A DNA stretch of 64,000 bases from Amoebidium appalachense (GCA_963693365.1 CAVNZM010000013.1:3438722-3502721); one strand, 5' to 3'. Positions 129 through 21,636 are shown, counted from the stretch's first letter. Translations and numbers: made by a program. Notes: generated by a model not told the origin, from the letters alone.

Positions 129-3100
129 ATGGGTAGCGGTGTAGTTCTGGGGTCCGTCTTGGATGCCCTTGAGGATCCTCTTCTATTAGTCGACCATCAG
201 GTTTGTGTGTGCTCGTTTTTCTTTTTCTTTTGTTTTTCCATTTCCCATTATTTTCTCTTACTAACCCCCCTCGCATATGTCTTTTTTTTCCTGCTCTTTT
301 CCTTTTCATGCTTCTCCCTTCCTTCCTTCCTTTCTTTCTTTTTTTTTTTTGTGTGTGTCTGGGGGGAGGGGGGAGAGGGCGGGGGCGGGGGGAGGGGGGG
401 GGGGGGGGGGGGGAAGAGGCGGGGGAGGCGGGGGGACGGGGGGGAGGGGGGGACATGATGGTTCATGTGTTATCATGCGTGGACTTATGCGAGTAGGCAG
501 GTGCTTTTGAATCTGTTGACATACTTGGTTTATTCACGTGTGTGTGTGTGTGGGGGGGGGGTCCGTGTGGGTCTGTATGCCTGTGTAGCGCGTGCGCGCG
601 CGCGTGTGTGTGATTGTTTGTATGTGTGTTTGTGTGCATCTATGCTTAATGAGTGTTAATGTGTTGTGTGTGTTTGTATCGTGTGTGTGTGTGTGTGTGC
701 GTGTGTCTGTGTGTGTGTGTTTGTGTGTGTGTGTGCCCAGCGTACGTGGCTGTTTGTGTTATAAGGGGATTGTTTTTTCCCTTCTGACAGTGGCTGTGTT
801 GCAGGGGAAAGTGTACGAGTGCAACCAAGCATCATGTTCTGCTTTGAGTGTGAGCAGGGCCGGTGCTCTTGCAGACTCCCTCACTGCTCTCTCCCCCGGC
901 ACAGCGGCACTCCTATCTGCACTATACAGAGAAGCCCCACCAATCACCGAGAAGCAAACACGAACGGAGACGGTTGATTGGATGATACCCTCCGGAGGAA
1001 CGACACAGTTTATCACGCGGATATCGAGGGTGAATCAGCATTCTGCGAATGGCAAACAATGTTATGTAATTTCTCTGAAATTCCCCCTTGGAGGGGGACC
1101 AATGGAGCGGAGGGCCTCTGGCAAGGGGGGTTTTGACTCACTCGGGCCTGCATTTGACGCGACAGGGGAACCCCTTTTGGCTCTGACGGACTCGGGTGTA
1201 ATCGTTGCTGCCAACCAACACATTGCCGTACTTCACCGCACCCCACCACCCCCACCGCCCCACCCCCACCATCTCCCCCTCAATAAATCGAGCTAGGGAC
1301 AAAGGGAGGGAGGGATGGAGGGGAAGGAAGATAGAGTGGGAGAGGAAAGAGGGTAGGGAATGAGGGAGGGAGAGGCAGAGGGTAAGGGGGAGGGGGAGAG
1401 GGAAAGGAGAGAGGGGGAGGGGGTGAGGGTGAGAAAAAGGGAGTGTTGGTGGAAGAGTCTGGGGAAGGTCAGGCGGGGGGAGGGAGGGGGGAGGGGGGAG
1501 GGGGGGGGGGGGGGGGGGGGGGGGGGGGGGGGAGGAGCAAAAAATGCAAGCAAGAGCGTAGGAGCAAGACGTATGAGAGATAAAACAGCGGACACCTACA
1601 TGTTTAGGTTCCCAGCCTCCGCCGTCCCCGCCCCTCCCCCCCCCCCCCCCCCCCCTTCCTTTCGATTTCCCCCCTCTCTACATCCAATTTGTCCACCCAA
1701 ACTTAAATGCACGTGGACGAGTGTCTACACCGGGGCAAAATCGATATTGGTAAAGGAAAGTGTGATCTTACTCCGTTTTTCTACAGGATGTGTTTGGCCA
1801 TGCGGCGTGGGAGCTAGCAGGCAAGAGTATCGGGATGCTTCTTGCCGGGGGGGAAGAGAGTGAGCAGTTGGGGGCGATGAGGGAGAGCCTGAGGGATGCA
1901 AATGTGGGCCCAGGGGAGGACGTGTTTGCTGAGAGAGTGAGTGAAGATATGTGCATCTGTTTGTGTATTGGGTGACTGTCCCTTGGGTAGGAGGGGCTGG
2001 GCGTGTAAGTGGAAGAGGAGGGGGGGGGGGGGGGGGGGGGGGGGGGGGGGGGGGGGGGGCGGCATGAGAGGGTGGTGGGTTTTCTTTTTTTCCTCCTTCC
2101 TTTTTTTCTTTCCCCCCCCCCCCCCCCCCCTTTTTTTTTTTTTTGTTTGGGGGGGGGGGGGGGGGGGGGGGGGGGGGGGGGGGGGAGAAACAGGACCCAC
2201 CCCATCCACCCCTACCCCCTCCCCCCCCCCGCCCCCAAACTCAGACGCAATTGATGACTTGGGCCCTCCCTGAGGATGGGCTCTGCTTATGACGCATACT
2301 GTGCGCATGGCTGATGTTGCATACTTGAATGTTTGCCTTTGCATGTGTCCTTCGTGTATGCGTACTTCGTACCGTGTTCCGCATTCAACCCCCCCCCCCC
2401 CCCCCCCTCCCCCCCCCTCCCCTCCCTCCCCCCCCCCCCCCCCCCCCCCCCACACACACACACACACAAACACAAAAACACACAATGATGTGTCTCTTGT
2501 ATGCACATTTCTCGTGTTAGCATTGGTTTATTTTAGGGTTTGCCTTGGTCTGAATCTTATATAACACATTCATCTTATGACTCTTGTTATTACAATGATA
2601 GCTCCGTTATTTGCCCCTCTATTCTTTACTCCCCCTCTCCCTCCCTCCCTCCCCCCCACGTCCTTTCGCCCCCCTCCCCCCCCCCCCCCCCCCCTCCCCC
2701 CCCCCTCCAACCACGTTCGGCCTCCCTACCCCTCAAATCTCTGACAAATTCCATTTCTCATTTCCAAAGTCTCCACCCCTCTTCCCCCCCACCCATCCAC
2801 CCACCAACCCACCCACCCTCCTTCCCATCCCCTACCATTCCCGCCCCCCCCCCCCCCCCCACCCACCACCACCAACAGGTCACTGGCAAACGACGTGACG
2901 GCAGCGAGCTAGCCATCTCCCTCACCGTCCGCACACCCACCCTCTCCCCACCTGGTTCGGCACGGACATTCCCCGGCGGTTGGAGATTTATATGCGTACT
3001 CAAAGACCTAACCGTTGAAGAGCGAACAGCAAACGAACTTCGCCGAACACGTCTCGCGGAAAACATTCTCCTCTCTCTGCCTGTCGCGGCTGGGGCGGTG

Positions 3101-21500: not shown

Positions 21501-21636
21501 CATAAGCGAGGGGGGTGTGGCTGTGTTGGCGAGCCTTGTGCACTTGAGGATAGTGGAGCTGTATGGGTGCAATGTGGATAGGAGGGTCGGCGTTGCTTTG
21601 GAGAGGGCTCTCCCTGGGTGCCGCATAAACATGTGA
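129..21636 (+). CDS. Multi-PAS (9x) - F-box - LRR protein, about 1833 aa, 23 exons
   Basis: Manually spliced exons: 129-200, 805-1227, 1787-1936, 2879-3257, 3935-4425, 5307-5629, 6546-6724, 7393-7808, 8536-9057, 9807-10103, 10637-10798, 11704-11878, 12350-12557, 13438-13517, 14188-14756, 15345-15456, 16534-16659, 17555-17656, 18198-18270, 18988-19074, 19748-19950, 20511-20566, 21340-21636. All introns GT-AG, phases consistent, total 5502 nt, no internal stop. The 5' end is uncertain: acceptor-like AGs at 116-117 and 122-123 follow a (CA)n tract, so further upstream exons are possible. Confidence 0.85.
14652..14756 (+). other. F-box motif
   Basis: [35 protein letters not shown] fits the F-box consensus LxxLPxEllxxIfxxLxxxxLxxxxxVCKxw, and LRRs follow directly. 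Confidence 0.85.
15345..21636 (+). other. About 13 leucine-rich repeats, FBXL-type (exons 16-23)
   Basis: LxxLxxLxL repeats such as [108 protein letters not shown]; ends [13 protein letters not shown]. Confidence 0.88.
18870..18980. repeat. About 24-bp intronic minisatellite (TCACCCCTCTATGCCTACGTCACC)
   Basis: About four adjacent copies just before the exon-20 acceptor; more degenerate copies extend back to about 18570. Confidence 0.8.

Follow-up and report, generated by a model that had tools for sequence, protein, structure and literature searches.

Does a single gene of Amoebidium appalachense join an array of PAS domains to the substrate receptor of an SCF ubiquitin ligase, and could heme in that array let oxygen decide what the ligase degrades? 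The question is raised by a 64,000-nucleotide stretch of the genome (the window; all positions are counted from its first letter), for which a first-pass annotation had proposed a fusion of nine PAS domains, an F-box and leucine-rich repeats (LRRs). Published work is cited below by PMC accession, for the portions of text that were available.

One open reading frame runs from the PAS array to the LRRs

The spliced model is a single gene on the plus strand, with 23 exons that join into one open frame of 1831 aa (Table 1). All 22 introns have GT-AG borders, the introns listed are 471-1076 nt long, and the 5496-nt coding sequence has only one stop, its final codon (TGA, 21634-21636), in agreement with the 23 phase-consistent GT-AG exons first proposed. 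The product is ordered as nine PAS domains, a helix, a 155-aa Pro/Ser/Gly linker, an F-box and 13 LRRs. The earlier description of a path from the PAS array through exon 14 and the linker to an F-box and about 13 LRRs, with no intervening stop, is therefore upheld. When 22 of the 23 exons were scanned one by one against Pfam (exon 22 is too short), PAS families were matched by exons 4, 5, 6, 8, 9, 10, 11 and 12, the F-box by exon 15, and LRR families by exons 17, 19, 21 and 23. A search of the introns turned up no PAS, F-box or LRR exon missing from the model. A decayed duplicate of the first part of exon 13, acceptor included, sits in intron 12 (12208-12275) and is unused in the contigs seen.

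The modelled 5' end is probably incomplete, with at least one exon lying upstream of the window, because the upstream contig of transcript run X1 (3865 nt) exceeds the coding sequence from ATG 129 by 429 nt, and only 128 bases, chiefly a CA repeat, precede that ATG in the window. An acceptor whose last base is 108 or 117 would place an in-frame TGA (120-122) ahead of ATG 129, and since the acceptor at 117 is a CAG, ATG 129 is favoured as the start; the gene's 22 acceptors comprise 20 CAG and two TAG. A GAG acceptor ending at 123 keeps the frame open and would allow at most about 140 extra residues, roughly one more PAS domain.

Table 1 Features of the PAS/F-box/LRR gene and their positions in the window
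Feature	Window position	Residues (aa)	Strand	Basis
Likely 3' splice-site region, upstream exon outside window	109-128		+	longer contig
Exons 1-5	129-200, 805-1227, 1787-1936, 2879-3257, 3941-4425		+	spliced gene model
Exons 6-10	5307-5629, 6546-6724, 7393-7808, 8536-9057, 9807-10103		+	spliced gene model
Exons 11-15	10637-10798, 11704-11878, 12350-12557, 13438-13517, 14188-14756		+	spliced gene model
Exons 16-20	15345-15456, 16534-16659, 17555-17656, 18198-18270, 18988-19074		+	spliced gene model
Exons 21-23	19748-19950, 20511-20566, 21340-21636		+	spliced gene model
PAS1, degenerate	141-1098	5-122	+	profile i-E 1.4e-3
PAS2, without proximal His	1129-3019	133-262	+	profile, alignment
PAS3, degenerate	3047-4128	272-404	+	Pfam, profile
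PAS4, without proximal His	4186-5435	424-546	+	Pfam, alignment
PAS5, Tyr at proximal His position, long insert before last strand	5460-7505	555-708	+	
PAS6, FixL-type	7560-8658	727-850	+	PDB match, alignment
PAS6 residues	7734-7736; 7803-7805	His785; Arg808	+	
PAS7, Arg939 kept	8686-9057	860-983	+	alignment
PAS8, FixL-type	9858-10753	1001-1121	+	PDB match, alignment
PAS8 residues	10032-10034; 10098-10100	His1059; Arg1081	+	
PAS9, Arg1208 kept, without proximal His	10781-12525	1131-1253	+	
Exon 14, 80-nt bridge	13438-13517		+	present in both contigs
Linker	14188-14651	1291-1445	+	composition
F-box, end of exon 15 and start of exon 16	14652-15368	about 1446-1488	+	PF00646
13 LRRs, up to the stop codon	15387-21636		+	repeat register, Pfam, PDB

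Other features of the window

Downstream of the gene, a GH18 chitinase that carries a ChiC domain and apparently has no introns occupies 23217-25428 (plus strand), split into four ORFs by frameshifts and a stop. This domain pair, which we take to be bacterial in character, is possibly a decayed transferred gene or the product of assembly errors. An inverted repeat of about 110 bp (26192-26301 and 26972-27080; 87% identical, 670 bp apart) is possibly a small non-autonomous DNA transposon, and small repeated exon pairs that are 86-90% identical (28171-30380, plus strand) read as a Cys-containing repeat protein. On the minus strand, 32188-40691 and 45552-54144 are a tandem duplicate of a multi-exon gene, with pieces 83-95% identical, that reads as a membrane protein; the five ORFs scanned had no Pfam match. 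An LTR retrotransposon lies at 55973-63801, with protease, reverse transcriptase, RNase H and integrase in Ty3/gypsy order, LTRs that are 97% identical and a coding region in several frames.

Transcripts cross the boundary between PAS array and F-box

Expression was assessed in contigs, not reads, of two runs from the same single sample, X1 and X2, which were presumed to be RNA; introns are absent from the contigs. Words sampled from exon 15 (n=55) were present at 100% in X1 and 74% in X2. At 13412-13545, one contig per run spans exon 14 and then 30 bases from the start of exon 15, the end beyond exon 14 being identical to 14188-14217, which gives junction 14/15; a third presumed RNA run of the sample, X3, yielded no contig there. 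At 11670-12590, contigs of both runs skip the 471 nt of intron 12, between exons 12 and 13, at GT..AG, and further contigs extend upstream to take in the final part of exon 11. The contigs covering both intervals are 1946 nt long at depth 116.2 in X1 and 619 nt at depth 6.11 in X2, and record positions matched the model in all ten cases checked, which fixes junction 12557/13438. Four of the 22 junctions are backed directly by contigs (11/12, 12/13, 13/14 and 14/15), and the remaining 18 are based on splice sites, phase and protein continuity. The X1 contig extends 1481 nt beyond 13517, of which the first 30 bases were seen; the F-box starts 464 nt into this extension, and the contig would end at about aa 1784, judged by length alone. 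X1 also contains a piece of intron 12 at low depth (3.6), which shows that the run includes some unspliced RNA or DNA.

Because the contigs join exons 12-13-14-15 as modelled, PAS9 and the linker/F-box exon lie on one transcript. Junctions 12557/13438 and 13517/14188, which had been put forward as the test of the fusion, are both found in contigs of the two runs from this one sample, and the feared transcript break before 14188 was not borne out, the depth-116 contig being continuous through both. It is accordingly very improbable that the locus consists of two adjacent genes, one PAS-only and one encoding the F-box and LRRs from ATG 14199, linked by minor read-through splicing. That arrangement would suit the in-frame position of ATG 14199 and the existence of PAS-only arrays (P0163, below), and a separate transcript start inside exon 15 would be invisible in contigs. 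However, a single contig is unbroken through both junctions, the second run agrees, and no contig covers the opening 28 nt of intron 14 or, past one shared base, the opening 33 nt of intron 13. The fusion gene is real and expressed, and is known from one genome only.

Two of the nine PAS domains have a FixL-type heme signature

A PAS profile built from bacterial domains recovered nine stretches in the spliced protein, in a test that is not fully independent, the bacterial domains having first been located by a profile seeded from this protein. Seven stretches are strong (i-E 1e-10 to 2e-29), and PAS1 and PAS3 are weak (i-E about 1e-3, N-terminal half only). The residues of interest are the proximal His and distal Arg, which are His200 and Arg220 in FixL numbering. 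In an alignment with seven FixL-like homologues, PAS6 and PAS8 alone have a clear pair, and a clean pair is absent from the other seven of the nine. The F-helix His of PAS6 and PAS8 aligns gap-free with FixL and DosP, and their Arg stands eight residues ahead of a conserved Asp-Gly, as in the seven homologues. Arg939 of PAS7 and Arg1208 of PAS9 are likewise in register with this motif, and PAS7 is ambiguous, its His916 aligning to the proximal His only via a two-residue gap. PAS9 is limited to the Arg, PAS5 carries Tyr where the His would be, and PAS1 to PAS4 lack both residues. The top PDB matches of exons 8 and 10 are the heme domains of FixL and DosP (E 6.8e-10 and 2.5e-12), and the best family-level match in NCBIfam is rhizobial FixL (NF041777, at a score far under the cut-off of 850). 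Thus the array of heme-PAS domains first claimed narrows to PAS6 and PAS8, where the FixL-type signature is present, and does not extend to the other seven.

From these residues, PAS6 and PAS8 are predicted to bind heme, and O2 would be held by the distal Arg, which in the available part of PMC11543664 is required for O2 and not for CO or NO. Two departures from the bacterial pattern accompany the signature: His and Arg are 23 residues apart in PAS6 and 22 in PAS8, where FixL and DosP have 20, and the FG loop exceeds that of FixL by 2-3 residues and is less hydrophobic, with hydrophobic residues changed. This altered spacing and loop could change or abolish reversible O2 binding. In the accessible text of a PAS survey, heme binding is determined chiefly by the His, which 40% of this PAS cluster does not have, so heme loss is common among FixL-type domains (PMC10468136).

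Shared introns show repeated duplication of a two-PAS unit

A phase-0 intron falls at one aligned column common to PAS2, PAS4, PAS6 and PAS8, and a phase-1 intron at one column common to PAS3 and PAS9. These shared positions show that a two-PAS unit with introns was duplicated repeatedly, inside a eukaryote, to build up the array. The nearest database relatives are bacterial kinases. A tree was built from 59 PAS domains, comprising 52 that remained from 104 once redundancy was filtered at 60% and seven of the nine from this protein; PAS1 and PAS3 were too diverged to be used. Six of the protein's own domains group together (support 88/91, not starred) and PAS4 is placed elsewhere (91/91); the AU test for one clade of own domains (p 0.293) neither rejects nor establishes such a clade, and the tree is compatible with one origin but is no demonstration of it. 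As no PASK was included, the tree does not separate direct donation by a bacterium from donation by a PASK-like eukaryotic gene, and PASK is a possible donor of the PAS unit.

A homologue of 1342 aa (P0163) has about eleven PAS domains, with Pfam listing PAS-type families only, and several carry the FixL-type His. Seven of its domains in the tree form their own clade (95/93), which marks an independent heme-PAS array. In the ESM Atlas, this homologue comes with eight PAS clusters, all chiefly bacterial.

Branch lengths also bear on whether the heme pocket is still in use. PAS6 (0.54) and PAS8 (0.26) are the least diverged of the seven domains in the tree, the other five having branches of 1.1-3.0, and PAS8 is up to 52% identical to bacterial FixL-like domains. 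Such low divergence is expected if the pocket is still selected; a recent duplication of PAS6 and PAS8, which are 58% identical, would explain their mutual likeness and not their likeness to FixL. This argues against an SCF receptor whose PAS array is a dimerisation or substrate scaffold, or a binder of some other ligand, with the His and Arg as leftovers and no gas regulation. Such a receptor is unlikely but deserves real weight, being consistent with the lack of the full signature in seven domains, with the long linker that separates sensor from F-box, and with the loss of the heme His by metazoan PASK from a FixL-like ancestor (PMC10468136, available text).

The C-terminal part resembles an FBXL receptor

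PAS9 is followed by a short helix-like segment and then the linker, which is 18% Pro, 12% Ser and 13% Gly, with ten Ser/Thr-Pro sites, two short basic patches and no domain recognisable in Pfam or NCBIfam. Exon 14, which we took to resemble a histidine-kinase helix, was considered as a relic of one and set aside, as no family in Pfam or NCBIfam matched it. Exon 15 scores 24.6 bits against the F-box family PF00646 (cut-off 20.5) over profile positions 1-34 of 43, and a single-sequence search of the PDB with the F-box gave one chance match and no solved F-box. The LRRs are 24-30 aa long, nine of the 13 being exactly 24, and their period is kept across introns. Pfam LRR matches were obtained in four of the seven LRR-region exons scanned, one above cut-off, and in the PDB exon 23 is matched best by two entries that bear the name GALA protein (E 2.5e-9 and 2.4e-6). 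By sequence criteria, this part reads as an ordinary FBXL receptor, with an F-box and an LRR solenoid.

The regularity of these parts matters for a further possibility, that the fusion is recent and lineage-restricted, transcribed with halves that act independently or with an F-box that works outside SCF. The linker's lack of a recognisable domain, the decay of PAS1 and PAS3 and the absence of an orthologue in single-exon protein searches would all fit. Set against them are an unbroken frame of 1831 codons over 22 introns, an F-box above cut-off, regular LRRs, and the presence in both contigs of the required 80-nt bridge exon, whose omission would shift the frame to a stop at aa 1308. We give this possibility only a small chance.

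A proposed oxygen-gated receptor

The reading that we favour, at a little under an even chance, is that the protein is an SCF substrate receptor whose activity is gated by O2 on the predicted heme of PAS6 and PAS8. From knowledge of the families, the F-box would bind Skp1-Cullin1 and the LRRs the substrate, PAS6 and PAS8 would bind heme via the F-helix His with the distal Arg holding O2, and the PAS-helix-PAS chain would form a dimeric rod. Because 155 residues of Pro/Ser/Gly linker split PAS9 from the F-box, rigid-helix signalling as in FixL is unlikely. The first-pass annotation had the sensor wired directly to the F-box; the two do share one protein, but direct coupling does not follow given this linker, and control is probably by indirect gating. 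More probably, as with ZTL and FBXL5, ligand state alters partner contact, dimerisation or how stable the receptor itself is; the LOV state of ZTL alters partner binding (PMC4496561, available part). As to direction, our guess leans only slightly towards a receptor that works in air, where it would have a factor of the low-oxygen response degraded.

The same domains might instead report heme availability, redox state, NO or CO, with heme stabilising the receptor in the manner of FBXL5 and its loss exposing a degron. The FBXL5 sensor exposes a degron without iron (PMC13282663, available part), the ten Ser/Thr-Pro sites of the linker suit regulated turnover, and the altered FG loop could shift ligand preference. 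We nevertheless consider such a sensor distinctly unlikely, since the distal Arg, with its O2-specific need (PMC11543664, available part), is kept in both His-bearing domains.

Taking O2 gating a step further, the gene would encode a one-protein, hydroxylase-free O2-sensing ubiquitin ligase in which reversible O2 on FixL-type heme switches target degradation, a proposal we hold more tentatively, at rather less than an even chance. If true, ZTL (light) and FBXL5 (iron/O2) would be joined by a third sensor/F-box/repeat receptor of independent construction, and to our knowledge no earlier one uses heme. Among the papers listed, O2-controlled degradation proceeds through dioxygenases (PHD-HIF-VHL, Skp1 hydroxylation) or iron centres (FBXL5). 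Reversible binding to heme would offer another, fast route that consumes no O2, and a bacterial-type kinase sensor would have been re-wired to the proteasome. If the coupling holds, it might serve as a template for tools of gas-controlled protein degradation.

Comparison with known systems

The architecture had been thought undescribed, and within a limited protein and literature scope no such protein was found among the matches listed. In proteins of at most 2000 aa, none of 3239 candidates from the exon 15 query passed; 12 of 1035 passed for exon 9 and 55 of 222 for exon 10, with an F-box or LRR Pfam match in 0 of 12 and 0 of 55, respectively. Among the best 150 of 34,429 matches to exon 23, a convincing PAS domain occurred in none (one 24-aa match had i-E 0.87). 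Single-exon searches are swamped by bacterial or many-repeat proteins, so that these counts are weak evidence of absence. No PAS/F-box/LRR architecture appeared among the titles and abstract starts listed from a limited literature that excluded subscription papers, and the PAS survey does not mention an F-box in the main text available or give a match in its supplement text (PMC10468136).

Plant ZTL, FKF1 and LKP2 are alike in having an N-terminal PAS-fold sensor, an F-box and a repeat domain, with the sensor controlling SCF (PMC4496561, available part). They differ in sensing blue light through one LOV domain that binds flavin and in having six Kelch repeats, whereas this protein has LRRs, a long linker and nine non-LOV PAS domains, of which two belong to the FixL heme type; the LOV flavin-binding Cys motif had no match in the gene model. 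Animal FBXL5 similarly places an N-terminal metal-cofactor sensor on an F-box/LRR protein and responds to iron and O2, but does so through a hemerythrin-like di-iron domain and an O2-responsive [2Fe2S] cluster (PMC13282663, available part). The hemerythrin family had no match among the 22 exons scanned, any upstream exon lying outside the window.

FixL and DosP of bacteria (cluster 3 of PMC10468136, available text) share the proximal His and distal Arg with PAS6 and PAS8, but they act via a rigid helix on a histidine kinase or a c-di-GMP phosphodiesterase, and kinase, HisKA, HATPase and phosphodiesterase families had no match in the 22 exons scanned. PASK of unicellular eukaryotes is likewise eukaryotic with PAS from the FixL cluster (PMC10468136, available text), and differs in its Ser/Thr kinase output, no kinase being matched in those exons. 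Oxygen also controls cullin-RING ligase output through Skp1 prolyl-hydroxylation and glycosylation in Dictyostelium and Toxoplasma and through PHD-HIF-VHL in animals (PMC3515798, PMC9485057, available parts). There, an O2-consuming dioxygenase modifies Skp1 or the substrate, whereas here reversible O2 on the receptor itself is proposed.

GALA-type and FBXL-type LRR proteins share the 24-residue LRRs, a match that denotes repeat class, with no orthology shown, and we know of none with PAS domains. Judged by its sequence, the gene product falls outside ZTL, FBXL5, FixL and PASK and within the FBXL proteins. ZTL and FBXL5 already show the design of sensor, F-box and repeats; what appears new here is the heme-PAS input and the array of nine domains.
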